Source: Deferrisoma camini S3R1
Lineage (GTDB): Bacteria; Desulfobacterota; Deferrisomatia; Deferrisomatales; Deferrisomataceae
Direction of reading: 5' to 3'
DNA length: 32,000 nt
NCBI RefSeq assembly: GCF_000526155.1
Contig: NZ_JAFN01000001.1
Coordinates: forward strand, 1,605,014-1,637,013
Part shown: positions 418 to 20,559 of the stretch, in pieces
Layout of the letters: the number at the start of each line of letters is the position of its first letter
How positions within the stretch are numbered: position 1 is the first letter of the stretch
Made by a program: the position numbers and the translations under genes
The notes under the pieces: model-generated
What the model was told of the DNA's origin: nothing
The model's input: only the letters and a program-made list of their open reading frames with translations
The model's database searches: none

Positions 418-753
418 CTAACCGCCCCGCTTCTTCACGGTGGCGATCGCCGGCTTGGACACCTTGATCTTGACGTTTGGAGCGATCTCCAGGGTGACGG
501 TCTCGTCGGTGACCCCGGTGACCCTAGCGTGGATCCCGCCCGAGGTGACCACCTCGTCCCCGCGCTGGAGCGCCTCGAGCATGGCCTTGTGCTCCTTCTG
601 GCGCTTCTGCTGGGGCCGGATCAGGAGCACGTAGAAGATCACGAACATCAGGATCAGCGGAAGCAGGCTGACGATGGGGTTGCCCTGCGCGCCGGATCCG
701 GCGCCGCCCTGGGCGCCCATAGCGAACGCGGTGGCGGGGAACAGAAAGTCCAT
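418..753 (-). CDS. yajC: YajC preprotein translocase accessory subunit (111 aa)
   Basis: ORF 418..990 trimmed to the internal ATG at 753 (cat at 751-753). An AAGGAG SD is the revcomp of 761-770. Product MDFLFPATAFAMGAQGG...PIVSLLPLILMFVIFYVLLIRPQQKRQKEHKAMLEALQRGDEVVTSGGIHARV has the single TM helix, the IRPQQKR motif and the GDxVxTxGG motif of YajC. Confidence 0.9.
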   Translation of the reverse strand: MDFLFPATAFAMGAQGGAGSGAQGNPIVSLLPLILMFVIFYVLLIRPQQKRQKEHKAMLEALQRGDEVVTSGGIHARVTGVTDETVTLEIAPNVKIKVSKPAIATVKKRGG

Positions 754-943
754 GACTTGGTTTCTCCTTATAGCTTCGGTCGTTGGTCGTCGATCTGGGG
801 CCTTCGGCCGTATCAGGGGCCAGAATTCAGAAGTCAGTGGAAAGGGAGAAGGCTCTTCGGTGCGTCGAGATGATCCCCCCGGGAAACCGAACTGCTTTTC
901 GGGATTTCCTGTCTTCTGTCCGCTGAAATCTGTCTCCTGACCC
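754..943 (-). repeat. ~190-bp conserved leader element, copy A (runs up to the yajC start codon and contains its SD)
   Basis: The revcomp of 754-943 aligns base for base with 12768-12964, at roughly 90 percent identity by eye. Shared text: TCAGGAGACAGATTYCAGCGGACAGAAGACAGGAAATCCCGAAAAGCAGTTYGGTTTCCCGGGGGGATC...CTGACTTCTGAATTCTGGCCCCTGATAYGGCCGAAGGCC...CGACCAACGACCGAAG..AAGGAG. Confidence 0.85.
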
Positions 944-983
944 GCCGGCCCTGTTGCCCGGCCCAGCAGGGGCCCGAGGCGAG

Positions 984-1252
984 GCCTCATACCAAGTCGC
1001 GTTCAAAGCTATTGCCCCCCTGCCCAGAGGGGCAAGGGTCCTGTCGGAGAGCCGGGCGCGGCCCCTTCGCTCGCCGCGCAGTGCCTCCGGCGTCTGGACT
1101 GCGAAAGGGTGCGGATTCCAACGGGTTGTCATGAAGCCAGCCCCCCGCCCCGTGCCTGCGCGGCGAATCTCAATGCCTGGCTTCGCGCCCGGCCGGAGGC
1201 AGGTCCCTTGCCCCGCCCCCGGCTGGGTATCCTACTGGATGGCAACTTGGTA

Positions 1253-1253
<1 letters not shown>
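984..1253. mobile_element. Foldback MITE-like element, family A, copy 1 (non-autonomous; no ORF)
   Basis: Termini are CCTCATACCAAGTCGCGTTCAAAGC (984-) and GCAACTTGGTAT (1242-1253), which are inverted repeats of each other. Internal arms are also inverted (GGGGCAAGGGTCCTG / CAGGTCCCTTGCCCC; CCGGGCGCG / CGCGCCCGG). A second full copy lies at 17492-17782, with partial copies at 2596-2812, 7451-7534 and 15231-15306. Confidence 0.7.
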
Positions 1254-2428
<1,175 letters not shown>

Positions 2429-3154: not shown

Positions 3155-4996
3155 ATGGCGAACGGCGGCGGCTTTCCCAGTCCCCACGACGTCTTCACGA
3201 TCCCCGGAACCGAGGGGTGGGAGCGGATGTACCCCTACCATTACCGGTTCGGGGCCGACGATCCCGAGCGCAAGGAGTACGAGGCGTCGATGTTCTGGTT
3301 CTACGACGGCCTCCACTACCCGGAACCGATCTACCCCTTCGACATGATCTGGGACGAGGCGTGGTTCCTGGCCCTGTCCCAGTACAACACCCGGATCTTC
3401 ATCGTGCCCCCCGCCCTGGGTGTGGACCACCGCATCATCAACGGCCGCATCTACATCACCCCGGTGCCGGTGAAGGACCCGTCCGAGATCCCCGCCCGGG
3501 TCGAGCATTTCATGAAGCGGGCCGGGTACTACTACGAGAACTGGGACGAGCTCTACGCCAAGTGGGAAACCAAGATGAAGGGTGTGATCGAGGAGCTGGA
3601 CAAGCTCACGATCCCCGAGCTGCCCGACATGGAGGAGGACTCGGTCGTGTTCGACGCCGTGGGCCGGAGCAGCGGCTACGAGCTGCTCACCGCCTACGAC
3701 CGGCTCATCCAGCTCGGCATCCTGGCCTGGCAGTACCACTTCGAGTTCCTGAACCTGGGGTATGCGGCGTACGTGACGCTCCTGGACTTCTGCCAAAAGG
3801 CCTTCCCCGGGATCCCCCTGCAGCGGGTCACCCAGATGGTCAGCGGCATCGACGTGATCCTGTACCAGCCCGACGAGGAGCTCAAGGGCCTGGCCCGCCT
3901 GGCCTGCGAGCTGGGCATCGAGGACGAGATCCTCGTGGAGCGCTCGGTGGAGGAGCTGTTCGAGGAGCTCAAGAAGACGAACGACGGCCGCCTGTGGGAG
4001 CAGCGGTTCGAGAAGGCCAAGTACCCCTGGTTCTACATCTCCACCGGCACGGGCTGGTTCCACCACGACCCGGCCTGGATCGACGAACTGGAGATCCCCC
4101 TGAGCTCCATCCGCATGTACATCCAGAAGCTCAAGAAGGGCGAGTCCCTGGAGCGGCCCCTGGGTGAGCTCAAGCGGGAGCGGGACCGGATCATCTCGGA
4201 GTACCGGGAGCTGCTGGGCTCGGACGACGACCGGGAGATGTTCGACAACTTGGTGGGCACGGCCCAGAGGGTGTTCCCGTACGTGGAGAGCCACCTGTTC
4301 TACGTGGAGCACTGGTTCCACTCGATCTTCTGGAACAAGATGCGCGAGGTGTCGCGCCGCTTCGTGACGGCCGGGTTCTGGGACGACGTGGAGGACATCT
4401 GGCTCCTGAACCGCCACGAGATCAAGCAGGCCATGTGGGACATGGTCACCGCGTGGGCCACCGGCACCCAGCCCATGGGCAGGCTCCACTGGGGACCGGA
4501 GATCGCCTGGCGCAAGCAGGTGATGGAGAAGTTCAAGGAGTGGACGCCCCCTCCGGCCGTGGGCACCCCCCCCGAGACGATCACCGAGCCGTTCACCATC
4601 GTGCTGTGGGGCATCACGAGCGAGACCATGGCCGCCTGGTCCAAGGGCAAGGAGGCCGGCGAGGGCCCGGTGCGGGAGCTCACCGGGTTCGCGGGAAGCC
4701 CCGGCGTGGTGGAGGGCCCGGCCCGGGTCTGCCGCACCGTGTCCGAGATCTCCACGCTGCAGGACGGCGAGATCCTGGTGTGCCCCACCACGAGCCCCAG
4801 CTGGGCGCCGGCGTTCACCAAGATCAAGGCCGCGGTCACCGACGTGGGCGGCATCATGTGCCACGCCGCCATCGTGTGCCGGGAGTACGGGCTGCCCGCC
4901 GTGGTGGGCACGGGCAACGCCACCCAGGCGTTCAAGACCGGTCAGAAGATCCGTGTGGACGGCAACACCGGCGTCGTCTCGATCGTCGAGGAGTAG
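3155..4996 (+). CDS. ppsA: Phenylphosphate synthase subunit A-like protein (PEP-utilizing enzyme, phosphohistidine swivel domain; 613 aa, about 70 kDa)
   Basis: AAAGGAGG SD. The C-terminus GSPGVVEGPARV...ILVCPTTSPSWAPAFTKIKAAVTDVGGIMCHAAIVCREYGLPAVVGTG is the PEP-utilizer mobile His domain. There is no ATP-grasp part. The size and architecture match the 70-kDa subunit described for Thauera aromatica phenylphosphate synthase. Context: ppsB-like and ppc-like genes nearby. Confidence 0.8.
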   Translation: MANGGGFPSPHDVFTIPGTEGWERMYPYHYRFGADDPERKEYEASMFWFYDGLHYPEPIYPFDMIWDEAWFLALSQYNTRIFIVPPALGVDHRIINGRIYITPVPVKDPSEIPARVEHFMKRAGYYYENWDELYAKWETKMKGVIEELDKLTIPELPDMEEDSVVFDAVGRSSGYELLTAYDRLIQLGILAWQYHFEFLNLGYAAYVTLLDFCQKAFPGIPLQRVTQMVSGIDVILYQPDEELKGLARLACELGIEDEILVERSVEELFEELKKTNDGRLWEQRFEKAKYPWFYISTGTGWFHHDPAWIDELEIPLSSIRMYIQKLKKGESLERPLGELKRERDRIISEYRELLGSDDDREMFDNLVGTAQRVFPYVESHLFYVEHWFHSIFWNKMREVSRRFVTAGFWDDVEDIWLLNRHEIKQAMWDMVTAWATGTQPMGRLHWGPEIAWRKQVMEKFKEWTPPPAVGTPPETITEPFTIVLWGITSETMAAWSKGKEAGEGPVRELTGFAGSPGVVEGPARVCRTVSEISTLQDGEILVCPTTSPSWAPAFTKIKAAVTDVGGIMCHAAIVCREYGLPAVVGTGNATQAFKTGQKIRVDGNTGVVSIVEE

Positions 4997-4999
4997 GGA

Positions 5000-6100
5000 A
5001 TGAGCCGAAAAGACATCGCGTGGTTCGAGGAGTGTCGCAAGGACGACACCCCGCTGGTGGGGGGCAAGTGCGCCAGCCTCGGGGAGCTGCTCGCGGCCGA
5101 GATCCGGGTGCCGCCCGGGTTCGCCGTGACCACCGAGGCCTACTACCACTTCCTCACCCGGGCCGGCATCAAGGAGCCCATCTGCAAGGTGCTGCGCCGC
5201 ATCCGCGACGGGGTGCCGGTGCACGAGGTCGGTGAGGAGACCCGCCGCATGGTGCTGGAGGCCCCGATCCCCGCGGAGGTGGAGGCAGGCATCCGGGCCT
5301 CCTACCGGGCCCTGTGCGACCGGTGCGGGGTGGAGGACCTGCCGGTGGCCGTTCGCTCCAGCGCCACCCTCGAGGACATGGCGGACGCCTCCTTTGCCGG
5401 TCAGCAGGACACCTACCTCTGGGTCCGAGGGGAGGACGAGGTGGTGGACAAGGTCAAGCGCTGCTGGGCCAGCCTGTTCAGCGACCGGGTCATCGCCTAC
5501 CGGGAGGAGAAGGGGTTCACCCACGAGAACGTGCGGATCTCGGTGGGCGTCCAGAAGATGGTCCGGGCCCGGACCTCGGGGGTCCTGTTCACCCTGAACC
5601 CGGTGAACGGCGACCGCTCCAAGGTGGCCATCAACGCCGCCTGGGGCTTTGGCGAAGGGGTGGTCTCGGGCGACATCACCCCCGACGACTTCCTGGTGGA
5701 CAAGGTCACCTTCGACATCTTGCGGCGCACCGTGGTGCCCAAGCCCGAGGCCTACCTGCTGGACCCAGCGGCAGGACGGGTGTGCCGGATGGGGGTGCCC
5801 GAGGCCGACCGGGCCAAGCCTTCCCTGTCGGACGACGAGATCCAGGAGCTCACCCGGCTCGCCCGCCGGATCGAGAAGCACTACGGCCGGCCCATGGACG
5901 TGGAGTGGGCCGTGGACGCCGACCTCCCCTTCCCGGAGAGCATCGTGACCCTCCAGGCCCGGCCGGAGACGGTGTGGTCCCAGAAACCGGCCCGAACCGT
6001 GGCGAAGGAGAAGCCCAAGTCGGCCCTGGACGCCATCGTGGGCAAGCTGCTGGCCGGGGTGCCGGTCCAGAACAAGGCCCAGACCGTGGGGGGCGTGTGA
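5000..6100 (+). CDS. ppsB: Phenylphosphate synthase subunit B-like protein (PEP synthase N-terminal ATP-binding domain; 366 aa, about 40 kDa)
   Basis: Starts 4 nt after the ppsA stop. The N-terminus WFEECRKDDTPLVGGKCASLGELLAAEIRVPPGFAVTTEAYYHF and the motif VAVRSSATLEDMADASFAGQQDTYL are the PPDK_N/PEP-synthase nucleotide-binding signature. Confidence 0.8.
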   Translation: MSRKDIAWFEECRKDDTPLVGGKCASLGELLAAEIRVPPGFAVTTEAYYHFLTRAGIKEPICKVLRRIRDGVPVHEVGEETRRMVLEAPIPAEVEAGIRASYRALCDRCGVEDLPVAVRSSATLEDMADASFAGQQDTYLWVRGEDEVVDKVKRCWASLFSDRVIAYREEKGFTHENVRISVGVQKMVRARTSGVLFTLNPVNGDRSKVAINAAWGFGEGVVSGDITPDDFLVDKVTFDILRRTVVPKPEAYLLDPAAGRVCRMGVPEADRAKPSLSDDEIQELTRLARRIEKHYGRPMDVEWAVDADLPFPESIVTLQARPETVWSQKPARTVAKEKPKSALDAIVGKLLAGVPVQNKAQTVGGV

Positions 6101-6546
6101 AAACCGATTCCGCCTCGGCCCGCCCCCAGGGGGCACCGGTGCGGATCGAAGGGGTGGTCTCCTCGGGCAGGGGCGAGGCGGCGGGGTTCGTGGACCTCCC
6201 CTGGGTGGTCGAACAGGTGCGGGAACGGGCGGGGTTCCGCCCGTTCCCGGGCACCCTGAACATCCTGGTGCGCGATCCCGCTTCCCTGGCGCGGTGGCAA
6301 CGGGTCCGCCGGGTTCCGGGGTTCCTCCTGGAGCCCGGCGACCCTTCCTTTTGCTCGGCCGCCTGCTACCCGGTGCTCGTGGCCGACCGGGTTCCCGGCG
6401 TGATCGTGCGTCCCCACATCCCCTCCTACCCCGAAGGCCTGGTCGAGGTGCTCGCGGCCACGTGCCTCCGACAGGAGCTCGGCCTGCGGGACGGGGACCG
6501 GTGCTCCCTGGCCTTATATCAATTTGCGATCAAGATGAGCTCATAG
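6097..6546 (+). CDS. Archaeal-type (CTP-dependent, DUF120/RibK family) riboflavin kinase homolog, 149 aa
   Basis: The GTG start at 6097 overlaps the ppsB stop (GTGTGA). VRIEGVVSSGRGEAAGFVDLPWVVEQVRERAGFRPFPGTLNILV and GVIVRPHIPSYPEGLVEVLAATCLRQELGLRDGD align motif for motif with Methanocaldococcus MJ0056 RibK as I remember it (IEGEVVSGLGEG..F...GFEPYEGTLNLKL ... GAIVVP..T.H...IIEIIAP.KLRE.F.LKDGD). The last ~10 codons (LYQFAIKMSS) are encoded by the MITE-like element that begins at 6512. Confidence 0.8.
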   Translation: MKTDSASARPQGAPVRIEGVVSSGRGEAAGFVDLPWVVEQVRERAGFRPFPGTLNILVRDPASLARWQRVRRVPGFLLEPGDPSFCSAACYPVLVADRVPGVIVRPHIPSYPEGLVEVLAATCLRQELGLRDGDRCSLALYQFAIKMSS

Positions 6547-6741
6547 GGGGGCGATTTGGGGACCGTTGGTCCTCCGCCGGAGAAGACGGCCTAGCCGAAG
6601 CCGCTACGGCTCGGTCTGCTGCGGCGCGTGAGAGCACGCGCCGCGGGCGCTCCCCTGCGCCGAGCGGCTTGAACGGCTCGGCCGGAGCGCTCCGGGCCAA
6701 CGGCCCCCAAATCGCTGGCTTCGGATGCGACCTGGCATTAC
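6512..6741. mobile_element. Foldback MITE-like element, family B, copy 1
   Basis: 230 bp. It is near-identical in inverted orientation to 20277-20505. Termini are CCTTATATCAATTTGCGATCAAGATGAGCTCATAGGGG and, in revcomp, GTAATGCCAGGTCGCATCCGAAGCC. The interior is a long imperfect palindrome (GCGATTTGGGG.CCGT.GGTCC arms; central CTGCGGCGCG-N8-CGCGCCGCGG with one mismatch; the copy at 20277-20505 has perfect CTGCGGCGCG/CGCGCCGCAG arms). Confidence 0.75.
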
Positions 6742-6768: not shown

Positions 6769-7464
6769 ATGGTCCGGTGCGTGCTGTTCGATCTGGAGGG
6801 AACGCTCGTGGACTTCCAGTGGAAGCTGGAAGAGGCCGAGGCCGAGCTGCGCCGGGCCGCAGCCGGGGTTCTGGGATGCGGCCCAGAGCGGTTCGCCGGC
6901 TTGAACTACGCGGGCATCTGGGAGGCCGCGATGGAGGCGGGCTCCCCGGCCCTGCGCGCCCGCATGGAGCAAACCCTGGGGCCCATCTACGACCGGTACG
7001 ACCTGGACGCCGCCACTCGCTGGACCCTGCGGCCGGGCGCCGCCCCGGTGCTCACCCGGCTCCGGGAGCTCGGAGTCCCCACGGCCCTCGTGACCAACGT
7101 GGGCCGTAGGGCGGCAACCCACATCCTGAGCCGGCTGGGCATCGATCGGCAGTTCGGGGTGGTGGTGACCCGAAACGACGTGGCTCGGATGAAGCCTGCC
7201 CCCGACGGCATCCGTAAGGCTCTCGACGCCCTGGGCACGACCGCGACCGAGGCCCTGATGGTGGGGGACAGCCTCTCCGACATCGGGGCCGCCCGGGCCG
7301 CCGGCTGCCGGGTGGCCATCGTGCTGGGGGGCGAGAGCACCGAGGCGGCGATCCGGGCCGCCCGGCCCGACCTGGTGCTGACCGACCTGCGGGAGGTCGT
7401 GGGTTCGCTCTGCGAGCCGCTGGAATGCCGGAAAGCCGGAAGGCCAAAAGCCCAAAGCTATTGA
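6769..7464 (+). CDS. HAD-superfamily hydrolase (phosphoglycolate-phosphatase-like subfamily IA), 231 aa
   Basis: GAGGAGGGG SD. Motif I is VLFDLEGTLVD, so the second acidic residue is Glu rather than Asp. Motif II is ALVTN, motif III is RMKPAPDG and motif IV is VGDSLSDIGAA. The 3' end (7419-7464) is made of GCYGGAAR octamers plus a MITE fragment. Confidence 0.85.
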   Translation: MVRCVLFDLEGTLVDFQWKLEEAEAELRRAAAGVLGCGPERFAGLNYAGIWEAAMEAGSPALRARMEQTLGPIYDRYDLDAATRWTLRPGAAPVLTRLRELGVPTALVTNVGRRAATHILSRLGIDRQFGVVVTRNDVARMKPAPDGIRKALDALGTTATEALMVGDSLSDIGAARAAGCRVAIVLGGESTEAAIRAARPDLVLTDLREVVGSLCEPLECRKAGRPKAQSY

Positions 7465-7534
7465 CCCGGCGCTGTCGCTCCCTGCTCGGAGGGGCAAGGG
7501 ACCTGTCGGAGAGCCGGGCGCGGCTCTCCCGCAG
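7451..7534. repeat. Partial family-A element fragment
   Basis: CAAAGCTATTG.CCC...GAGGGGCAAGGG.CCTGTCGGAGAGCCGGGCGCGGC matches 1004-1062 of copy 1. It contains the HAD gene stop codon. Confidence 0.7.
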
Positions 7535-7616
7535 ACCCCAAGCCCCCCTGGGCTTTGGCGCGGTTCGAGAGCCGCCTGGCCGCCTAGCTGCCTAACCGCC
7601 CAGCCGCTTGGCCCCC

Positions 7617-8498
7617 CTAGCTTTCCTCCAGGATCTCCAGGAACGCCTGCGCGGCAGGGGAGAGCACGTCCGGCTCCGGGCACACGATGAACACGTCGAG
7701 CCACAGGCGCTCGTCCCGGAGCGGGATCTCCACCACCTTCCCCGCCCTCAGCTCCTCCTCCACGGCGCACCGAACCAGAAACGAGACCCCCTCCCCCCGG
7801 GCCACCACGTCCTTGATGAACTCCAAATTGCTGGTTTCCACCAGCACCTTGGGCGACACGCCGTGCCGCCGACAGGCGCCGCGCACCAGGGTGCGGGTGG
7901 TCGAGCCCTCCTCCTTGAGGACCATCAGCTCCCCCGCCAGCTCCGAAAACCCCACCTCTCCCCGGCCCGCCAGGGGATGGCCCGGGGCGGCGAACAGCAC
8001 CACCTCCTCCCTCCGGAACGGAACGCACCGCAGTCCCCGGACCGGTTCGGCCAGACCCACCACGGCCATCTCGCTGCGGCCTTCGACCACCGATCGAACC
8101 ACCGCCGCGGACGCCCCCTCGTCCAGCACGATCCGGATCCCGGGGTATGCGGCGTGGAACCGGCCCAGGATGTCGGGCATGACGTACCGGGCGTACGTCT
8201 TGGTGGTGCCCACCTTGAGCAGCCCCTGCCGCACGGTCCGGAGCTCCTCCACGAGCCCCTCGATCTCCCTCTCCAGAGCGAACACCCGCTCGGCCTGCCG
8301 GAACACGAGGGCCCCGGCCTCGGTCAGCACCATGTTCCGACCCCGACGTCGGAACAGGCGAAGCCCCAGGGCCTCTTCCAGGGCCCGGATCTGCCCCGAC
8401 ACGGCCGGCTGGGTGACGCACAGGGCCTCCGCCGCCCGAGTGAAGCTTCCGCTCCGTGCGGCCTCGTAGAACGTTCGTAACTGGTTGAAGTTGAGCAT
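7617..8498 (-). CDS. LysR-family transcriptional regulator (293 aa)
   Basis: ORF 7617..8861 trimmed to the ATG at 8498. The N-terminal wHTH MLNFNQLRTFYEAARSGSFTRAAEALCVTQPAVSGQIRALEEALGLRLF is followed by a LysR substrate-binding domain. The gene is divergent from the UbiD-type operon. No obvious SD. Confidence 0.9.
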   Translation of the reverse strand: MLNFNQLRTFYEAARSGSFTRAAEALCVTQPAVSGQIRALEEALGLRLFRRRGRNMVLTEAGALVFRQAERVFALEREIEGLVEELRTVRQGLLKVGTTKTYARYVMPDILGRFHAAYPGIRIVLDEGASAAVVRSVVEGRSEMAVVGLAEPVRGLRCVPFRREEVVLFAAPGHPLAGRGEVGFSELAGELMVLKEEGSTTRTLVRGACRRHGVSPKVLVETSNLEFIKDVVARGEGVSFLVRCAVEEELRAGKVVEIPLRDERLWLDVFIVCPEPDVLSPAAQAFLEILEES

Positions 8499-8505
8499 GG
8501 CAGTA

Positions 8506-8599
8506 ACGGGTGACGGGTGACGGGTGACGGGTGACGGGTGACGACCTGCGACCTGCGACCTGCGACCTGCGACCTGCGACCTGCGACCTGCGACCTGCG
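8506..8599. repeat. Two abutting heptamer tandem arrays: 5 x ACGGGTG (8506-8540) and 8 x ACCTGCG (8544-8599)
   Basis: Perfect copies counted directly from the sequence. They lie between the LysR start codon and the candidate LysR box, inside the divergent promoter region. Confidence 0.95.
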
Positions 8600-8608
8600 A
8601 CCAACAGC

Positions 8609-8623
8609 ATAACTCCACCTTAT
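8609..8623. promoter_or_regulatory. Candidate LysR-type (T-N11-A) operator ATAAC-TCCAC-CTTAT
   Basis: ATAA-N7-TTAT dyad containing a T-N11-A core. It is positioned between the divergent LysR gene (start 8498) and the first UbiD-type gene (8713). Confidence 0.3.
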
Positions 8624-8712
8624 ACATCAGCGCAAAACATATGATTGGACCCCGCCTCCACCGGGCGCTAGAGTCGCAACCCATCAAACGATTTTTTGCG
8701 AAGGAGGGAGAC

Positions 8713-10128
8713 ATGGACCTCAGGGACTTCATCGCCCGCTGCGAGGAAGAGGGGCAGCTCAAGCGGATCGGCGCCGAGGTGGACTGGGACCTGGAGCTCA
8801 GCCACGTGGCCAAGCTCGTGGAAGAACAGGAGGGGCCGGCCCTCCTGTTCGAGAACGTCAAGGATTACGACAGCCCCGTGTTCACGGGTGCGTTCGCCAC
8901 CACCCAGCGGCTGGCCCTGGCCCTGGACAAACCCACCCATCTGAGCCTGTGCGAGCTCACCCGCGAGTGGATGAAGCTCGCGGTGGACAAGATCATCCCG
9001 GCCCAGGAGGTGGAGTCGGGACCGGTGTTTGAAAACGAGTACAGCGGCGACGACGTGGACATCTTCCGGTTCCCCTCGCCCCGGTTCTTCGAGAAGGACG
9101 GCGGCCGCTACATCGGCACGGCCGTGTTCCTGGTGACCCGCGACCCCGAGACCGGCGGGATCAACCTGGGCACCTACCGCATGCAGGCCCAGGAGAAGAA
9201 CCGCATCGGGGTCCAGATCCTCAAGGGCAAGCGGGGCGACCGCATCCTGAAGAAGTACAAGAAGGCCGGGCAGAAGATGCCCGCCTGCGTGGTGATCGGG
9301 TGCGATCCCCTGCTCATGCTCGCGGGAAGCGCCATGGTGGCCAAGGCCAGCGAGTACGACGTGGTGGGGTCGCTCCGGGGCGAGCCGGTCACGGTCACCC
9401 AGGGCAAGGTCACCGGCCTTCCGATCCCGGCCGACGCGGAGATCGTGCTCGAGGGCTGGATCGACCCCGACGATCTGCGGCCCGAGGGGCCCTTCGGCGA
9501 GTACACCGGGTACTACACCGACGAGCTGTTCCACCCCATTCCCAAGCCCTCCATGGTGGTCGAACGCGTGTACCACCGGAACAAGCCGATCCTGTGGGCC
9601 ACGTCGGTGGGCCGCCCGGTCACCGACAACCATTGGATGCTGGCGTTCGTGCGCGGGGCCACCCTGTGGACCGAGCTGGAGAAGATGCGGATCCCCGGGA
9701 TCGAGTCGGTGTACCTGCCGCCCGAGGCCTGCGGCCGGTTCTGGGCCATCGTGAGCGTGCGCCAGATGTACCCCGGCCACGCCAGCCAGGTGGCGGCCGC
9801 GGTGGTGGCCAGCAACACCTGCACCTACGGCACGAAGGGGGTGATCGTGGTGGACCACGACGTGCGCGCCGACGACCTGCCCCGGGTCTGGTGGGCCCTG
9901 GCCACCCGTTTCGACCCGGCCCGGGACACCCAGATCATCCAGCGCGGCCGCTCCACGCCCTTGGACCCGGCCCTGGACCCCGACTCCAACAAGCTCATCA
10001 CCTCCCGCATCCTGCTGGACGCCACCGTTCCGTTCGAGTGGGAGCAGAAGCCGGTGGAGGTGGCCCTGGTGCCCGAGGTGGTGGAGCGGATCAAGAAACG
10101 CTGGAAGGAGCTGGGGCTGGACGACTGA
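8713..10128 (+). CDS. UbiD-family (prFMN-dependent) carboxylase, phenylphosphate carboxylase alpha/beta-type subunit (471 aa)
   Basis: ORF 8641..10128 trimmed to the ATG at 8713, preceded by AAGGAGGGAG. Contains MDLRDFIARCEEEGQLKRIGAEVDWDLELSHV, GGINLGTYRMQ and the active-site loop EGPFGEYTGYYTD, all typical of UbiD. The ~53 kDa size fits PpcA/PpcB. Confidence 0.85.
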   Translation: MDLRDFIARCEEEGQLKRIGAEVDWDLELSHVAKLVEEQEGPALLFENVKDYDSPVFTGAFATTQRLALALDKPTHLSLCELTREWMKLAVDKIIPAQEVESGPVFENEYSGDDVDIFRFPSPRFFEKDGGRYIGTAVFLVTRDPETGGINLGTYRMQAQEKNRIGVQILKGKRGDRILKKYKKAGQKMPACVVIGCDPLLMLAGSAMVAKASEYDVVGSLRGEPVTVTQGKVTGLPIPADAEIVLEGWIDPDDLRPEGPFGEYTGYYTDELFHPIPKPSMVVERVYHRNKPILWATSVGRPVTDNHWMLAFVRGATLWTELEKMRIPGIESVYLPPEACGRFWAIVSVRQMYPGHASQVAAAVVASNTCTYGTKGVIVVDHDVRADDLPRVWWALATRFDPARDTQIIQRGRSTPLDPALDPDSNKLITSRILLDATVPFEWEQKPVEVALVPEVVERIKKRWKELGLDD

Positions 10129-10467
10129 GAGAACTTCCTGAGAAGCCCCTCCAGGCCCCCTGCGGGGCCCGGTACGAGGAAAGGTAACGCTTGGTGGTCC
10201 TGGGGCCATCGGCGGCGGGGCATGGGTTTCAGGGGACAGGAGCCAGAAGAGGGGCAAAGACACTGGGGCCAAAGCGGCGTCGTGGGACCACGCCCTGCCC
10301 ACTGACGTCTGTCCTCTGACTCCTGATCCCCATGCCCCCGGACTGTGAGGTGGAGGCGAGGAGGCATGGGGATGCCTAGAAGGCGCGGGAATCCGAGAGG
10401 TTTTCAGACCTCCCAACGTCCCAGCCTCCCAGCGTCCTAGCGGAAGTTACATGAAAGGAGGCATTCC
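10129..10467 (+). repeat. Mosaic intercistronic element, copy 1
   Basis: Modules in order: GGCCCCCTGCGGGGCC hairpin (10154-10169); a diverged leader-like segment; GGACTGTGAGGTGGAGGCGAGGAGG box (10340-10364); CCTCCCAR octamers (10409-10440); GGAAGTTAC (10442-10450); AAGGAGG SD; ATG at 10468. Modules are shared with 11011-11230 and 30389-30640. Confidence 0.8.
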
Positions 10468-11010
10468 ATGGCCTACGACATGATGGATGCGATCGAGCGG
10501 GCCAAGCGCGTGAAACTGGTGGTCCTGGACGTCCACGGCGTGCTCACGAACGGCATGGTCCTGTTCAACGAGGACGGCGTGAAGTTCCAGGTGTTCCACC
10601 ACGACGACGGGTTCGGGGCCAACGTGCTGATGATGTCGGGCATCGAGGTGGCGCTGCTCACCCGCAAGTCCAAGATCGTGTTCGCCCGGGCCCAGGAGGT
10701 GGGCATCAAGCGGGTGTACGCGGCCAAGGAGAAGTGGGCCAAGATGGAGGAGATCATGGCCGAGATCGGCATCGGCCCCGACGAGGTGTGCTACGTGGGC
10801 GACGAGGTCATCGACCTGGGCGCCATGCGCCGGGTGGGATTCGCGGTGTGCCCGGCCAACGGGGTCCCCGAGGTCCGGGACGCGGCCCATCTCATCACCC
10901 ACAGGGCCGGCGGCGAGGGCATGCTGCGGGAGCTGGCCGAGTTCATCCTCAGGGCCCAGGGCCGATGGGGCGCCCTGGTGGAGAAGATCGCGAACATGGG
11001 CTGGGGCTGA
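10468..11010 (+). CDS. ppcD: KdsC-like HAD phosphatase, phenylphosphate carboxylase delta-subunit candidate (180 aa)
   Basis: Collinear with E. coli KdsC as I remember it (KLVVLDVHGVLTNG, DGFG, GDEVIDLGAMRRVGFAVCPANG, GGEGMLRE). Its size and its position between two UbiD-type subunits fit the 18-kDa phosphatase-family subunit of the Thauera enzyme. Motif I is DVHG instead of DVDG. Confidence 0.75.
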   Translation: MAYDMMDAIERAKRVKLVVLDVHGVLTNGMVLFNEDGVKFQVFHHDDGFGANVLMMSGIEVALLTRKSKIVFARAQEVGIKRVYAAKEKWAKMEEIMAEIGIGPDEVCYVGDEVIDLGAMRRVGFAVCPANGVPEVRDAAHLITHRAGGEGMLRELAEFILRAQGRWGALVEKIANMGWG

Positions 11011-11230: not shown

Positions 11231-12679
11231 ATGGCGTACCGCTACTACAAGGACAACCGCGAGTTCATCGAGGCCCTGCGGGCCACCGGAGACCTGGTCA
11301 CGGTGGAGCCCGAGGTGGACTGGGACCTGGAGCTCGGGGCCATCGTCCGGCGGGTGTGCGAGCTCCAAGGCCCGTCGCCCCACTTCAAGAAGATCAAAGA
11401 CTACCCCGGCTTCGAGGCCCTGGGCGCGCCCTTGGCCACCTACCGGAAGCTGGCGGTGTCCCTGGGGCTTCCGGCCGACACCCCGATCCCGGAGATCGGC
11501 AGGGCCTATGTGGAGCGCACCGAGCGGGGCGAGCCCCTCAAGCCCAGGGTGGTGGACCGCAGCCGGGCCCCGTGCAAGCAGAACGTGTGGACGGGCGACG
11601 ACGCCAACCTGTTCAACCTGCCCGCGCCCATGGTCCACGACGGCGACGGCGGCCGGTACCTGGCCACCTGGCACATGGTGGTGGCCAAGGACCCGGACAC
11701 CGGCGAGGTGAACTGGGGCATGTACCGCCAGATGGTGTTCGACGAGAAGACCATGGTGGGCCCGGTGCTGCCGTTCTCCGACATGGGCAAGATGTTCTTC
11801 AACAAGTACGTGCCCCGAAACCAGCCCATGCCGTTCGCCACGGTGATCGGCATGGACCCGCTATCCGGCGTGGCCGCCTGCGCGCCCTCGCCGATCCCGG
11901 AGGACGAGTTCGCGAGCCTCCTCATGGGCGAGGCGGTGGAGGTGGTGAAGTGCGAGACCTCGGACCTGCTGGTGCCGGCCCACGCCGAGATCATCATCGA
12001 GGGCGAGGTGCTGCCGGGCGTCTGGCTCGAGGAGGCGCCGTTCGGGGAGTACACCGGCTACCGCACCTCGCCCCGGGAGCGGCGCACCGTGTACCGGATC
12101 CGGGCGATCACCTTCCGGGACAACCCGATCCTCACCGTGTCGAACATGGGCGTGCCCACGGACGAGGGCCAGCTCCTACGATCGTTCTCCCTGAGCCTCG
12201 AGATGGAGAAGCTCCTGCGTAGCCAGGGCATCCCGATCACCGGCGTGTACATGTGGCCCGAGTCCACCCACCACATGGTGGTGATCGGCACCCGCCACGC
12301 CTACACGGGCATCGCCCATCAGATCGCCAACCTGGTGTTCGGCAGCAAGCTGGGCCCCTGGTTCCACATGGTGGTGGTGGTGGACGAGAACACCGACATC
12401 TACAACAAGAACCAAGTGATCCACGCCCTGGCCACCCGGTGCCATCCGGTCAACGGCATCCACATCTACGAGAACGACGTGGGAACTCCCTTGAACCCCT
12501 ACGCCACCCCGGCCGAGCGACGCCTGGGCAAGGGCGCCAAGGTGCTGTTCGACTGCCTGTTCCCGCGGGACTGGCAGCCCTCTGACATCCCGATCCTGGT
12601 GGCGTTCGACACGGTCTACCCCCAGGAGGTCCGGGACAAGGTGTTGGCCAACTGGAAGGCATACGGGTTTTCCGAATAA
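11231..12679 (+). CDS. UbiD-family carboxylase, second phenylphosphate carboxylase alpha/beta-type subunit (482 aa)
   Basis: Contains FIEALRATGDLVTVEPEVDWDLELGAIVRR, NWGMYRQM and EAPFGEYTGYRTS. It is a paralog of 8713-10128. Confidence 0.85.
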   Translation: MAYRYYKDNREFIEALRATGDLVTVEPEVDWDLELGAIVRRVCELQGPSPHFKKIKDYPGFEALGAPLATYRKLAVSLGLPADTPIPEIGRAYVERTERGEPLKPRVVDRSRAPCKQNVWTGDDANLFNLPAPMVHDGDGGRYLATWHMVVAKDPDTGEVNWGMYRQMVFDEKTMVGPVLPFSDMGKMFFNKYVPRNQPMPFATVIGMDPLSGVAACAPSPIPEDEFASLLMGEAVEVVKCETSDLLVPAHAEIIIEGEVLPGVWLEEAPFGEYTGYRTSPRERRTVYRIRAITFRDNPILTVSNMGVPTDEGQLLRSFSLSLEMEKLLRSQGIPITGVYMWPESTHHMVVIGTRHAYTGIAHQIANLVFGSKLGPWFHMVVVVDENTDIYNKNQVIHALATRCHPVNGIHIYENDVGTPLNPYATPAERRLGKGAKVLFDCLFPRDWQPSDIPILVAFDTVYPQEVRDKVLANWKAYGFSE

Positions 12680-12964: not shown

Positions 12965-13219
12965 ATGGCTGAATACGACGCGTTTTTCGAGAACCTGCAG
13001 GAGGTCCCCCAGGACGAGGAGATCCGCCTCGTGATCCGGGACCTCACCCCGGGCCGGACCAAGTACCGGTGCCAGGTGGTCCGGGCCCAGGTGTCGAGTG
13101 AGCCTTCCAAGTACCCGGAAAGGCTGTGGCCCCGCCTGGGCCGGGGGCAGTGGGTGGGCGAGCCCTGGTCGATCCGGGTGGTGGAGGAGGTGGACCCCAT
13201 CCCGGAAGCGTGGCGGTAG
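12965..13219 (+). CDS. Small protein (84 aa, about 10 kDa), candidate phenylphosphate carboxylase gamma subunit
   Basis: TAAGGAG SD and strong GC3 bias. Its size and its position directly after the UbiD-type subunits fit the 10-kDa subunit of the Thauera enzyme. I cannot verify sequence similarity from memory. Confidence 0.5.
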   Translation: MAEYDAFFENLQEVPQDEEIRLVIRDLTPGRTKYRCQVVRAQVSSEPSKYPERLWPRLGRGQWVGEPWSIRVVEEVDPIPEAWR

Positions 13220-13232
13220 GGGAGCACGGATC

Positions 13233-14576
13233 GTGGCGTTCCGCGACCTGACCGGGGTGCTGGAGTTCCTCCGGGCCACCGGCCGCCTGGCGGAGGTGGG
13301 GGGCCCCGTGTCGGTGCGACACGAGGTGGCGGCCCTACTCCACGTGGCGTCCCGGCAGCATCGAGCCGTGCACGTGGGTCGGACCGACCGGGGCCCGCTG
13401 CCGGTGGTGGGGAACGTGCTGTGCCACGACGAGGTCCTGGCCCTCGGCCTGGGCGTGCCCTCGGAGCAGGCCGGCCGCGCGTTCGTGGAACGGTGCACCG
13501 CCGAGGTCCCGCCGCGAACCGGGACCGACGGCCCCGTGCTCGAACGTTCGATCGAGCCGGCAGAGATCGGGGAGTTTCTGCCCGTGCTCACCCACTACGA
13601 GGGCGACTCCGGGGCGTTCCTCACCACGGCCGTTGTCTCGGCCGTGGATCCCCGCACCGGCGCCGTGGCCCGGGGCGTCCACCGCATGGAGCAACGGGGA
13701 CCGGATCGGTTCGGCGTAGCCCTGCTGAACCCGCCCCTGTCCGATGTGTACGCCCAGGCCAGGGCGGCGGGCCGGCCCCTGGCGGCCGCTGTGACCCTGG
13801 GGCACGAGCCGCTCACCTTTCTCGCCGCAGCCCTCAAGGGGCGCGCCGGCGAAGACAAGATGGCCGCGGCCGGCGCCCTGCGGGGGGAGCCCGTGGACCT
13901 GGTGAGCGCCCCCCACACCGGTATCCCGGTGCCGGCCGAGGCCGAGATCCTGCTGGAGGGCGAGATCGACCCCTCGGACGAGCGCCCGGACGGCCCGTTC
14001 GGGGAGATCAGCGGGTACCACGTATCGTTTTCCGCCACGCCCACCTTCGTGGTGAAATCGGCCCGGTGCCGGCAGAGCCCCCTGTACCACGCCCTCCTCC
14101 CCACCGGGTGGGAGGCCGACCGGCTCCTGGGCATGGTGGCCGAAGCGTCGGTGCAGGCCCTGGTCGGTCCGGCGCCGGTCGAGGTCACGGCGGTCCGGGC
14201 CGTCCCGTTCTCGTACGGGGCTTCGGTGGTGGTCCGGCTCGCTCCGGCAACGCCGGACCGGATCCGGGCGTTCCTGGAGATCCTGCTGCGCGAGACCCGG
14301 GTGAAGCAGGTGGTGGCCGTGGCCGAGGACGTGGACGTGGAAGATCCCTGGGACGTGGAGTGGTCCGTAGTGAGCCGCAGCCAGCCCGATCGGGACTGGG
14401 TGATCCTGCCGGGCCTCCGGGGCCAGCCCATCGACCCTTCGGCCCACGAGCACGCGGTCACGGCCAAGGCGGCCGTGGACGCCACCGGGTACCACCGGGT
14501 ACCCGGACGGCGGGCTCGGGTGCCCCAAGGGGCCCTGGAGCGGTGCCGGGCGTTCCTGACGAGGAGAGAGCGATGA
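13233..14576 (+). CDS. Divergent third UbiD-family decarboxylase/carboxylase paralog (447 aa)
   Basis: GTG start at 13233 with a GGGGAG SD 8 nt upstream; the ORF track frame is 13098..14576. Contains LEFLRATGRLAEVGGPVSVRHEVAALL, GVHRMEQ and DGPFGEISGYHVS. It is clearly more diverged than the other two paralogs. Confidence 0.75.
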   Translation: MAFRDLTGVLEFLRATGRLAEVGGPVSVRHEVAALLHVASRQHRAVHVGRTDRGPLPVVGNVLCHDEVLALGLGVPSEQAGRAFVERCTAEVPPRTGTDGPVLERSIEPAEIGEFLPVLTHYEGDSGAFLTTAVVSAVDPRTGAVARGVHRMEQRGPDRFGVALLNPPLSDVYAQARAAGRPLAAAVTLGHEPLTFLAAALKGRAGEDKMAAAGALRGEPVDLVSAPHTGIPVPAEAEILLEGEIDPSDERPDGPFGEISGYHVSFSATPTFVVKSARCRQSPLYHALLPTGWEADRLLGMVAEASVQALVGPAPVEVTAVRAVPFSYGASVVVRLAPATPDRIRAFLEILLRETRVKQVVAVAEDVDVEDPWDVEWSVVSRSQPDRDWVILPGLRGQPIDPSAHEHAVTAKAAVDATGYHRVPGRRARVPQGALERCRAFLTRRER

Positions 14577-15169
14577 GTGCACCCCGCAGAATGGTGGTTG
14601 GCATCTCCGGGGCCACCGGCCCCCAGTACGGCATTCGGCTCCTGCAGGTGCTGGGAGAGCTCGGCGTGGAGACCCATCTGGTCCTCTCCAAGGCCGCCCG
14701 GCGAAACATCCGGCTCGAGAGCGACTGGACCCCGGAGCGGGTGGAGGCCCTAGCATCCAAGGTCTACGACCCCGAGGACGTGGGCGCGGCCATCGCCAGC
14801 GGATCGTTCCTGACCGAGGGAATGGTGGTGGCCCCCTGCTCGGTCAAGACCGCCTCGGCCATCTCCAACTCGTACAACGACAACCTGCTGGTGCGGGCGG
14901 CCGACGTGACCCTGAAGGAGCGCCGGCCCCTGGTCCTGCTGTTCCGGGAGACCCCGCTGCACAAAGGGCACCTGGACATCCTCCGCCGGTGCGCCGACAT
15001 TGGGGCGGTGATTCTGCCGCCCATGGTGGCCTTCTACCACCGCCCCCGGACGGTGGAGGAGATCGTGGACCAGACCGTGGGCAAGGTGCTCGACCAGCTC
15101 CGCATCGAGCACAACCTGTTCCGTCGCTGGAAGGGCAGCGACGTGAAGGTGCTGTCGGCGGGAGGATGA
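14573..15169 (+). CDS. ubiX: Flavin prenyltransferase UbiX (prFMN synthase), 198 aa
   Basis: The ATG overlaps the upstream stop (ATGA). Contains RMVVGISGATGPQYGIRLLQVL, MVVAPCSVKTASAISNSYNDNLLVRAADVTLKERRPLVL and RETPLHKGHL, which are canonical UbiX/Pad1 motifs. Confidence 0.95.
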   Translation: MSAPRRMVVGISGATGPQYGIRLLQVLGELGVETHLVLSKAARRNIRLESDWTPERVEALASKVYDPEDVGAAIASGSFLTEGMVVAPCSVKTASAISNSYNDNLLVRAADVTLKERRPLVLLFRETPLHKGHLDILRRCADIGAVILPPMVAFYHRPRTVEEIVDQTVGKVLDQLRIEHNLFRRWKGSDVKVLSAGG

Positions 15170-15393: not shown

Positions 15394-16737
15394 ATGCCGT
15401 ACCCGGAAACCGAGTACTGGAACCCGATCACCGAGACCCTGGACCCGGACCGGCTCCGGGAGATCCAGCTGGCCAAGTTCCGGCGGGTGTTCGCCTGGGT
15501 ATACGAGCGAAGCCCCATGTATCGCCGCAAGTACGACGAGGCCGGCCTTCGGCCGGAGGACGTGCGGACCTGGGACGACCTGGCCAAGGTGCCCCTGGTG
15601 ACCAAGGACGACTACCGATGCCAGGGCGCGGACCCGTTTCCCTACGGCGACACCCTGTGCGTGCCCCTGGAGGAGGTGACCGAGTACCACCAGACCTCGG
15701 GCACCACCGGCACCCCCGTGTATCAGCCCGACACCTGGGCCGACTGGGAGTGGTTCTCGGAGCTCTGGGCCACGATCCTGTGGGCCCAGGGGTACCGGCC
15801 CACCGACCGGGTGTTCTTCCCCTTCGGGTACCACGTGTTCATCGCCTTCTGGACCGCCCACTACGGGGCCGAGAGGCTCGGGTGCGAGGTGGTCCCCGGC
15901 GGGGTGCTGGGCACCCGGGAGCGGCTGCTCAAGATGCGCGAGCTCAAGACCAACGCCTTCATGGCCACCCCCACCTACGTACTGGGCATGGCCGAGACCG
16001 CGCGCAAGGACCTGGGCGCCGACCCCCGGGAGTGGGGCATCGAGCGGATCACATGCGCCGGGGAGCCTGGGGCCTCGGTTCCAACGACGAAAAAGCGGAT
16101 GCAGGACGCCTGGGGCTGCCCCGTGTACGACCACGTGGGCGCCACCGAGGTCGGCGCCTGGGGGTTCGAGTGCCGGCACCAGCCCGGGGGCCAGCACGTG
16201 ATCGAGTCCATGTTCCTGGTGGAGCTCCTGGAGTTGGATGCGGATCGGCCCGTGACCCGGCCCGGGGTGCCGGGACGGATCGTGATCACCGCCTTCGACC
16301 GGAGGGCCCAGCCGTGCGTGCGGTTCGACACCAAGGACGTGTCCATGTGGGCCGCGGACGGATGCGGGTGCGGCCGCACCTGGCGGATCCTCGAAGGTGG
16401 GGTCCACGGCCGGGTGGACCACATCACCAAGGTGAAGGGGGTGCTGTTCTCCCCGGTCACCGTGGAGGAGGTGGTCCGATCGTTCGAGGAGCTGGACGGC
16501 GAGTTCGAGATCTTCGTGGAGAAGCGGGGGGACCTGGATCACATCACCCTCAAGGTGGAGCTGCCCGACGGACTGGCCCCGCCGGACCGGGACAACCTAC
16601 TCAAGGAGCTGGCCAGCCGGCTCCGGTGGAAGACCCAGCTCAACTTCGACATCCAGCCCCAGCCCTACGGCAGCCTGCCGCGCTACCAGGTCAAAGCCCG
16701 CCGGTTCCACGATCTTCGCAAGAAGGGAGGCGTGTAA
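15394..16737 (+). CDS. PaaK-family adenylate-forming aryl-acid CoA ligase (phenylacetate-CoA ligase / F390 synthetase family), 447 aa
   Basis: Contains LREIQLAKFRRVFAWVYERSPMYRRKYDEAGL, VPLVTKDDYR and the P-loop-like HQTSGTTGTPV. The ~50 kDa size is typical of PaaK and shorter than benzoate-type ligases. Confidence 0.85.
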   Translation: MPYPETEYWNPITETLDPDRLREIQLAKFRRVFAWVYERSPMYRRKYDEAGLRPEDVRTWDDLAKVPLVTKDDYRCQGADPFPYGDTLCVPLEEVTEYHQTSGTTGTPVYQPDTWADWEWFSELWATILWAQGYRPTDRVFFPFGYHVFIAFWTAHYGAERLGCEVVPGGVLGTRERLLKMRELKTNAFMATPTYVLGMAETARKDLGADPREWGIERITCAGEPGASVPTTKKRMQDAWGCPVYDHVGATEVGAWGFECRHQPGGQHVIESMFLVELLELDADRPVTRPGVPGRIVITAFDRRAQPCVRFDTKDVSMWAADGCGCGRTWRILEGGVHGRVDHITKVKGVLFSPVTVEEVVRSFEELDGEFEIFVEKRGDLDHITLKVELPDGLAPPDRDNLLKELASRLRWKTQLNFDIQPQPYGSLPRYQVKARRFHDLRKKGGV

Positions 16738-20279: not shown

Positions 20280-20505
20280 TACCAAGTCGCATTCGAAGCC
20301 AGCGATTTGGGAGCCGTCGGCCCGGGGCGCGACGGCCGAGCCGTTCAAGCCGTTCGGCGCAGGGGAGCGCCTGCGGCGCGTGCTCTCTCGCGCCGCAGCA
20401 GACCGAGCCGTAGCGGCTTCGGCGAGGCCGTCTTTTCCAGCGGAGGACCGACGGCCCCCAAATCGCCCCTCTATGAGCTCATCCTGATCGCAAATCGGCA
20501 TGAGG
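20277..20505. mobile_element. Foldback MITE-like element, family B, copy 2
   Basis: The left end TGATACCAAGTCGCATTCGAAGCC includes the stop codon of the GHMP-like gene. The right end is GATCGCAAATCGGCATGAGG. It is an inverted near-duplicate of 6512-6741. Confidence 0.75.
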
Positions 20506-20559
20506 TCCCCCCTGCGGGGAGCCCGGAGCTCCCCCTTCGCAAGGAAAGGAGGAAGGCGC

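Follow-up and report, generated by a model that had tools for sequence, protein, structure and literature searches.

Prenylated flavin mononucleotide (prFMN) serves the UbiD-family (de)carboxylases, among them phenylphosphate carboxylase and, in anaerobes, the putative carboxylases of benzene and naphthalene. These enzymes are often inactive as obtained, with prFMN supply and maturation being limiting. Known routes to the precursors are the housekeeping kinase RibF for flavin mononucleotide (FMN), and prenol kinases or dimethylallyl diphosphate (DMAPP) phosphatases for dimethylallyl phosphate (DMAP). UbiX makes prFMN from reduced FMN and DMAP (PMC7500099). A separate family of riboflavin kinases, RibK, is represented by MJ0056 and by the kinase domain of RbkR from Thermoplasma acidophilum (structures 2VBV and 5TRD), and its orthologues were stated to be absent from Bacteria (PMC5397151). 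Here, we describe a RibK-like (DUF120) gene at 6097-6546 of a 32,000-nucleotide stretch of Deferrisoma camini S3R1 (contig NZ_JAFN01000001.1), in the following called the window. The gene lies directly after ppsB in a predicted phenol island with UbiX and three UbiD paralogues, where the end point of the described UbiX-UbiD system, prFMN from FMNH2 and DMAP, is the same. Its product is assigned to a distinct, mostly bacterial DUF120 subfamily and is probably a riboflavin kinase in a local FMN-to-prFMN supply line with UbiX.

6097-6546, plus strand: RibK-like (DUF120) gene from the subfamily with Trp36 and Cys86 ("type B"), predicted to encode a flavin kinase that feeds UbiX (evidence: PF01982, fold, GC content at third codon positions (GC3), ubiX linkage)

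The frame translates into a protein of 149 amino acids (aa). Its GC3 is 0.86, compared with 0.52 and 0.72 in the other two frames, and the overall GC content of the window is 68%. The GTG start (6097-6099) overlaps the TGA stop of ppsB (6098-6100), which gives an overlap of 4 nt. An internal GTG at 6139, with an AGGGGG Shine-Dalgarno motif 5 nt upstream, was considered as the main start and rejected, since the relative L003/L004 (87% identical) has GTC there. The same relative keeps the GTGTGA junction, and its sole downstream indel, of 12 nt, is in frame. The overlapping start is preferred on these grounds, and translational coupling of the DUF120 gene to ppsB is our best call. No FMN riboswitch or other Rfam family was found in the window at gathering score.

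The protein matches Pfam family PF01982 (CTP-dep_RFKase/DUF120) with 94.5 bits (cut-off 25; E=5.8e-27). The match covers residues 21-138 and profile positions 1-119 of 121, and PF01982 is the sole Pfam family matched. Searched with phmmer against the PDB sequences, the protein is collinear end to end with the RbkR kinase domain (3CTA/5TRD, E=9e-14), and likewise collinear with MJ0056 (E=3e-9). An AlphaFold2 model built from 17 homologues reaches a predicted local distance difference test score (pLDDT) of 87 and a predicted template modelling score (pTM) of 0.80, with residues 144-149 below a pLDDT of 50. Foldseek places this model next to RbkR 5TRD (E=1.5e-10, TM 0.76-0.78, root-mean-square deviation 2.0 A) and MJ0056 (2VBV, TM 0.69; 2VBU was also matched). 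These two proteins are the only significant neighbours, the next unrelated structure having E=0.2. In the model, the protein has the cradle-loop barrel fold of MJ0056 and RbkR. The original prediction had read from the sequence a 149-aa frame with DUF120/RibK motifs, a GTG start on the ppsB stop, membership in the RibK family and collinearity with MJ0056. The translation, the junction shared with L003/L004, the PF01982 match, and the agreement of the phmmer alignment with AlphaFold2 and Foldseek bear out all four points. Family membership as such is not new, since bacterial genes of this kind already bear the pipeline annotation "CTP-dependent riboflavin kinase" or "DUF120 domain-containing protein".

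Ligand residues were defined by the RbkR-CTP structure (PMC5397151) and transferred via the phmmer alignment. In RbkR, these are Thr131, Leu132, Asn133, Leu202 and Arg203, with Glu195 as the proposed catalytic base; a triphosphate loop SGxGEG, in which Gly102, Gly104 and Gly106 are highly conserved; and a flavin site of Tyr109/Phe, Tyr115, Phe165, Pro185 and Tyr190 (PMC5397151). The window protein retains the GTLN motif (T53, L54, N55) and Leu124-Arg125 of the CTP site, the catalytic Glu as Glu117, and F31, F85, P106 and Y111 of the flavin site, while Tyr128 of RbkR is replaced by Phe50, a frequent variant. It thus has in common with RibK and RbkR the PF01982 domain and barrel, GTLN, the catalytic Glu, the Leu-Arg loop for the base and the majority of the flavin-site residues.

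When 89 DUF120 sequences of the fetched loci are aligned, two types separate. The canonical type carries GxGEGxYY, xxY and xFGxV and includes MJ0056, RbkR and most archaeal copies. The second type, to which the window protein belongs, is marked by Trp36 and Cys86 (xWV and FCxA) and a relaxed glycine loop, e.g., SDLGRAGAF. In two independent alignments its invariant positions are F31, W36, P49, P51, G52, T53, L54, N55, C86, P106 and E117. The invariant GTLN/Glu117 core suggests that the phosphotransfer core is under selection. The glycine loop varies among relatives (SDLGRAG in the Binatia-like group, GQGRGA, GKGKGA), and the middle Gly alone is general. A profile search of a set of 5.8 billion proteins yielded at least 6136 DUF120 matches; the best 120 of these are all single-domain and include no DUF120-UbiX fusion.

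One Nitrososphaerota metagenome-assembled genome (MAG, L026) holds two DUF120 paralogues 2.3 kb apart (7289-7648 and 9995-10366), a canonical GLGEGAYY copy beside a RibL-like gene and a Trp-type copy. At archaeal Trp-type loci the neighbours, e.g., an acyl-CoA synthetase-like gene or an inositol-1-phosphate synthase, are uninformative.

The strongest evidence for a role in prFMN supply comes from gene order. Scanning the GTDB representative genomes with the subfamily alignment gave 80 loci (32 bacterial, 48 archaeal), which were screened by tblastn with the island proteins. Half of the bacterial loci (16 of 32) have ubiX within 150 nt of DUF120, and five further ones carry UbiX or UbiD genes within 10 kb. 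The same screen found linkage to UbiX or UbiD in none of the 48 archaeal loci (Fisher's exact test for ubiX linkage, bacterial versus archaeal, p=2e-8). By gene order, it is only the bacterial DUF120 subfamily that is tied to UbiX. Direct adjacency is seen in loci labelled Chloroflexota (L011), Alphaproteobacteria (L012, followed by a UbiD gene), Thermincola (L015) and Proteobacteria (L046), and in the Binatia-like group. Looser linkage is found in Methylomirabilia (L033), Desulfobacteraceae (L039), a Desulfovibrio MAG (L063), Desulfobacterium N47 (L048, three UbiD-like genes) and the window/Deferrisoma lineage. In the window itself, ubiX lies 8 kb downstream of DUF120 in the same island. Thermincola L015, L046 and L063 are further phenol (pps/ppc) clusters with a DUF120 gene. 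The Thermincola order is ppsA, ppsB, DUF120, ubiX, ppcB, ppcD, ppcA and three UbiD genes.

The recurrent partners point in the same direction. The closest named homologue, with 70% identity, is from Deferrisoma locus L001, whose order is ppsA, ppsB, flavin reductase (PF01613), DUF120, a 355-aa FMN_dh protein, HAD, LysR, ppcB, ppcD, ppcA, ppcC, UbiD and UbiX. The FMN_dh protein is called as a type-2 isopentenyl-diphosphate isomerase (IDI-2; TIGR02151, 298 bits versus 281). The 12 Binatia-like loci (L016, L018, L022, L030, L031, L038, L041, L043, L044, L052, L073 and L089) have the common order coxD, coxE, xdhC, xdhC, DUF120, ubiX and a PNPOx-like gene (e.g., L041:6640-13198), and in four of them (L016, L018, L041, L052) an IDI-2-like gene stands between the last two. 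A mevalonate pathway was considered for the operon 5' of DUF120-ubiX and rejected, because its genes are of the coxD/coxE/xdhC maturation type: a MoxR/CoxD-like AAA protein, a CoxE-like VWA protein and two XdhC proteins, i.e., molybdoenzyme maturation factors. PNPOx-like genes also flank the DUF120 module in L033, L068, L027 and L094. In the UbiD clusters L092:1-8525 and L039:1338-10378, RibBA (3,4-dihydroxy-2-butanone-4-phosphate (DHBP) synthase/GTP cyclohydrolase II) lies between UbiX and DUF120. L092 also holds three HAD-IA paralogues and an IDI-2-like gene.

Two of these partners occur fused to the kinase domain. The Desulfovibrio MAG (L063:478-1584) encodes a 368-aa fusion of DUF120 (residues 13-130) and HAD-IA (150-355), which adjoins a divergent ppsBA pair as well as ppcB and ppcD. 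A Thermoleophilia MAG (L027:4925-5890) encodes a DUF120-IDI-2 fusion, whose open reading frame (ORF) ends at the contig edge; its IDI-2-like domain is 59% identical to the Deferrisoma IDI-2, and a PNPOx-like gene lies immediately upstream (4551-4907). As an unfused gene, HAD-IA follows DUF120 directly in the window lineage (L003) and in L005, L090, L091, L092, L093, L094 and L095, and L090 adds a RibL-like cytidylyltransferase near the pair. The genomic partners thus differ between the subfamilies: ubiX, IDI-2, HAD and PNPOx-like genes for that of the window, RibL or RibB for canonical RibK. The canonical (type-A) archaeal loci have a RibL-like neighbour in 23 of 33 cases and a RibB-like neighbour in some; the separate type-A copy of L026 adds one more RibL-like neighbour. 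Together with the prFMN-relevant partners of the bacterial copies, this suggests that in both subfamilies the context follows flavin metabolism.

Several metagenomic and MAG loci carry a protein of about 106 aa (MHIYxKIYEFAASAGALEGYVY...), which has no Pfam match, directly 5' of DUF120-HAD: L090:3662-3982, L091:3503-3829, L092:3662-3979, L079:3821-4138 and L042:281-601. Homology was tested for these five (54-61% identity). An ORF at L095:4638-4958 was grouped with them by size and position only, and the window has no counterpart.

The adjacency to ubiX across phyla and the clustering or fusion with IDI-2, HAD, flavin proteins and RibBA support the supply-line reading. For substrate, phosphoryl donor and flow towards prFMN, we infer the following. 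Phosphorylation of riboflavin by the DUF120 protein would yield FMN and thereby open a local cofactor line. FMN would then be reduced, in relatives by the flavin reductase or the PNPOx-like partner, and UbiX would prenylate reduced FMN with DMAP. The resulting prFMN would be loaded into PpcA, PpcB and the third UbiD paralogue. In relatives, IDI-2 together with a phosphatase, possibly the HAD protein, would provide DMAP. Alternatively, the HAD protein could be a riboflavin-pathway phosphatase, which fits the RibBA neighbours. The adjacent HAD-IA phosphatase of the window would belong to the same module, either as riboflavin-pathway phosphatase or as DMAPP-to-DMAP phosphatase. The DUF120 gene would be co-transcribed, and probably translationally coupled, with ppsAB, so that cofactor supply would be induced along with the phenol pathway. 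Unlike in the known ad hoc routes, the precursor genes cluster with, or fuse into, the ubiX neighbourhood: DUF120 and HAD here, and IDI-2, flavin reductase or PNPOx-like genes and RibBA in relatives. Of the two readings offered by the original prediction, an FMN-to-prFMN supply line is well supported by this context, i.e., by ubiX adjacency in several phyla, partners and fusions, and by the co-occurrence of DUF120 with pps, ubiD and ubiX genes (16 of 32 bacterial loci ubiX-adjacent, 0 of 48 archaeal).

A number of observations weigh against this reading, and the first group concerns the protein itself. It misses the NCBIfam equivalog cut-offs for ribK_Meth (NF040694, 50.5 bits versus 168) and for the RbkR type (NF010762, 73.2 bits versus 279). 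Unlike RibK and RbkR, it comes from a bacterial host, its glycine triphosphate loop is degenerate (G24-R-G26-E-A28, i.e., GRGEA instead of GxGEG, with Gly106 replaced by Ala28), and Tyr115 is replaced by Val37, flanked by the invariant Trp36, with an invariant Cys86 after the flavin-site Phe. The predicted triphosphate loop and flavin pocket are altered in the Trp36/Cys86 subfamily as a whole, and donor or substrate specificity of the window protein may therefore differ from that of RibK. The pair in L026 suggests that canonical and Trp-type copies are not redundant. Bacteria normally have RibF, so that the need for a second kinase is presumed. Furthermore, no enzymatically characterised member of the Trp36/Cys86 subfamily was found in the literature searched, most subscription journals lying outside the search. 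Within the same scope, we found no paper linking DUF120 or riboflavin kinase to UbiX or UbiD, and no mention of the Trp36/Cys86 signature, of IDI-2 or HAD fusions, or of a multi-gene prFMN-supply module.

These features would also fit a flavin-site protein of the prFMN module that is not a plain CTP:riboflavin kinase, but uses another donor, acts on a reduced or modified flavin, or passes on FMNH2 or prFMN among reductase, UbiX and apo-UbiD. With DMAPP as donor, the products would be FMN and DMAP, the two substrates of UbiX. Such a protein is consistent with the exchanges that mark the subfamily in the triphosphate loop, where Ala stands for Gly106 (and, in the Binatia-like group, Asp for Gly102), with those in the flavin pocket, where Val stands for Tyr115 and both Trp36 and Cys86 are invariant, with the missed RibK equivalog cut-offs, with the fusion to or position beside the type-2 isomerase that makes DMAPP, and with the Trp-type paralogue alongside canonical RibK in L026. 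However, GTLN, Leu-Arg and the catalytic Glu are invariant or nearly so, as for ordinary riboflavin phosphotransfer, and the RibBA and RibL-like neighbours fit ordinary FMN synthesis. Nothing points directly to an alternative donor, and at some archaeal loci a Trp-type copy is the only one within the examined stretch and may act as housekeeping kinase. We consider this alternative unlikely. Its boldest extension makes the Trp36/Cys86 DUF120 gene the signature of a horizontally mobile prFMN-supply module (DUF120, HAD, IDI-2, a split-barrel flavoprotein, sometimes RibBA, and UbiX), with the kinase re-tuned, e.g., to DMAPP as donor or to handing reduced flavin over to UbiX; this we regard as a long shot.

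The second group of opposing observations concerns the context. The most constant partner of DUF120 is the HAD gene, not ubiX. Twelve of the 16 ubiX-adjacent loci belong to the one syntenic Binatia-like lineage; with these collapsed to a single locus, Fisher's test gives p=0.002, and p=1e-6 when UbiD-linked loci are included. About one third of the bacterial loci have no UbiX or UbiD gene within 10 kb. A shared alternative partner was sought in L013, L019, L024, L068, L074 and L076, which are without ubiX, and their neighbours proved to be of mixed kinds, namely a CoA-transferase, a cyclase, a Mo-oxidoreductase and a poly(A) polymerase-like gene.

DUF120 and HAD could then be a general pair for FMN homeostasis or biosynthesis that serves all flavoproteins, with DUF120 as the kinase and HAD as phosphatase of 5-amino-6-ribitylamino-2,4-pyrimidinedione 5'-phosphate (ARPP) or FMN hydrolase; it would be present in the phenol island as a hitch-hiker. 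A precedent is found in plants, where one bifunctional protein joins a HAD-type FMN hydrolase to a riboflavin kinase; it resembles the L063 fusion in its kinase-HAD pairing. The plant kinase is ATP-dependent and has the eukaryotic/bacterial riboflavin kinase (RFK) fold with a PTAN motif, not DUF120, and we know of no link of it to UbiX. In line with a general pair, DUF120-HAD recurs more constantly than any other pair, frequently with no UbiX nearby (L005, L090, L091, L093, L094, L095), and L090 has its RibL-like cytidylyltransferase. Against it, at least five independent lineages have ubiX as the immediate neighbour, at least five more have UbiD clusters, and DUF120 occurs in four phenol clusters of differing gene order. 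Since ubiX is typically single-copy, chance adjacency of DUF120 and ubiX is very unlikely. A general FMN pair thus appears quite improbable to us, and the supply line with UbiX is the reading that we prefer.

The position directly after ppsB raises the question of whether the protein belongs to the synthase instead. PpsC of Thauera aromatica is reportedly a CBS protein, which agrees with the gene content of L046 described below. Its gene has the same position directly after ppsB as DUF120 in the window and in Thermincola. The phenylphosphate synthase of Thauera has a 24-kDa stimulatory gamma subunit, whose function was given as unknown (PMC6114531). It could be imagined that a RibK fold was recruited as nucleotide-binding accessory of phenylphosphate synthase and replaces the CBS-type PpsC. 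DUF120 follows ppsB with a 4-nt overlap in the window and after a 38-nt gap in Thermincola L015, and no CBS-domain protein turned up in the island when the plausible genes were scanned with Pfam, nor in the window when the CBS protein of L046 served as tblastn query; Pfam likewise finds no CBS domain in the DUF120 protein. Yet L046 has both. Its order is ppsA, ppsB, CBS-pair protein, ppcB, flavin reductase, ppcD, ppcA, UbiD, UbiX and DUF120. The 224-aa CBS-pair protein (L046:2988-3662; PF00571, 73.5 bits) directly after ppsB is presumed to be the classical PpsC, while DUF120 stands beside ubiX, 7 kb from ppsB. CBS pair and DUF120 are, moreover, unrelated folds. In Deferrisoma L001 a flavin reductase separates ppsB from DUF120, in L063 the DUF120-HAD fusion and ppsBA are divergently oriented, and in most subfamily members the neighbourhood lacks pps genes. 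The coexistence in L046 and the gene orders of Deferrisoma and L063 disfavour the accessory role, which we hold to be highly improbable. The second reading of the original prediction, an accessory of the phosphotransferase, is not supported, in view of these same loci and of the pps-less members. Its remark that the gene is in the position of the third synthase protein holds for the window and Thermincola L015, where the arrangement looks like operon packing and not like a functional replacement. The best reading is that cofactor supply and pathway are thereby co-regulated.

These findings add to the supposedly archaea-only RibK family a large branch in Bacteria, which has signature residues and a genomic context of its own. 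The ubiX-associated set of flavin kinase, HAD, IDI-2 and flavin reductase or PNPOx-like protein offers candidates for the DMAP and reduced-FMN supply steps, and might serve as a ready-made helper cassette for heterologous expression of UbiD enzymes.

The island around the gene was mapped by Pfam and NCBIfam scans with GC3-guided gene calling. In line with the context given by the original prediction, these scans recover PpsA, PpsB, three UbiD paralogues (PpcB, PpcA and one further) and UbiX, and the region is predicted to be a complete anaerobic phenol activation island. The genes called are the following, where entries without further evidence come from the Pfam/NCBIfam map.

418-990, minus strand: yajC

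1253-2380, minus strand: tgt

3155-4996, plus strand: ppsA, phenylphosphate synthase alpha subunit, with phosphoenolpyruvate (PEP)-utilizer mobile His domain (PF00391; NCBIfam PRK08296.1-4, 987 bits)

5000-6100, plus strand: ppsB, phenylphosphate synthase beta subunit, with PPDK_N ATP-binding domain (PF01326, E=1e-114)

6769-7464, plus strand: HAD-IA phosphatase (PF00702, PF13419)

7617-8861, minus strand, listed from the first TTG: LysR-type regulator (PF00126, PF03466)

8641-10128, plus strand: ppcB, phenylphosphate carboxylase beta subunit, UbiD family (TIGR02724, 694 bits versus 469)

10468-11010, plus strand: ppcD, phenylphosphate carboxylase delta subunit, KdsC-like HAD (TIGR02726, 146 bits, below 282)

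11231-12679, plus strand: ppcA, phenylphosphate carboxylase alpha subunit, UbiD family (TIGR02723, 690 bits versus 565)

12965-13219, plus strand: ppcC, phenylphosphate carboxylase gamma subunit (PF09662, E=1e-16)

13098-14576, plus strand: third UbiD-family paralogue (PF01977, PF20695, PF20696)

14573-15169, plus strand: ubiX, flavin prenyltransferase (NF004685, 253 bits versus 188; TIGR00421, 244 bits)

15394-16737: PaaK-like ligase

17788-18900, minus strand: PAS histidine kinase

19137-20279, plus strand: GHMP-kinase-like gene

20500-21525: Phenol_MetA_deg outer-membrane channel

21587-23047: sigma-54 response regulator

Compared with Deferrisoma L001, ppsA is 84% and ppcD 91% identical, PpcA and PpcB are 88-91% identical, and the third UbiD paralogue is 67% identical to its counterpart of 447 aa. 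This paralogue stays under all equivalog cut-offs, the best being a generic UbiD subfamily (206 bits versus 245); its first start codon overlaps ppcC, so that the true start is probably near 13230. For the LysR gene, which has an equivalent in the same position in L001, the helix-turn-helix (HTH) domain begins at residue 125, and the true start is therefore probably near 8500. The HAD-IA protein is below all NCBIfam equivalog cut-offs, and its PDB and NCBIfam matches are generic, phosphoglycolate-phosphatase-like.

A palindromic repeat of about 220 bp occurs twice in the window.

6512-6741, plus strand: copy 1, inserted at the 3' end of DUF120

about 20279-20507, minus strand: copy 2, takes up the interval that separates the GHMP-kinase-like gene from the Phenol_MetA_deg gene

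The two copies share about 92% identity and are mutually inverted. The element has 22-nt inverted arms (GCGATTTGGGGRCCGTYGG), and the arm motif is observed four times in the window, with 0.03 occurrences expected. It folds as a long hairpin (-125.6 kcal/mol, z=-4.7) and has no Rfam match. Copy 1 supplies the end of the DUF120 ORF (the last 8-11 codons and the stop), a tail that falls outside the conserved domain, and opens a 222-nt gap between DUF120 and HAD. The relative L003 is without the element and has a gap of 17 nt.

The GHMP-kinase-fold gene that adjoins copy 2 sits between the histidine kinase and the outer-membrane channel gene. It exhibits weak, sub-threshold similarity to beta-ribofuranosylaminobenzene-5'-phosphate synthase and homoserine kinase, and could encode a small-molecule kinase bearing on DMAP supply.

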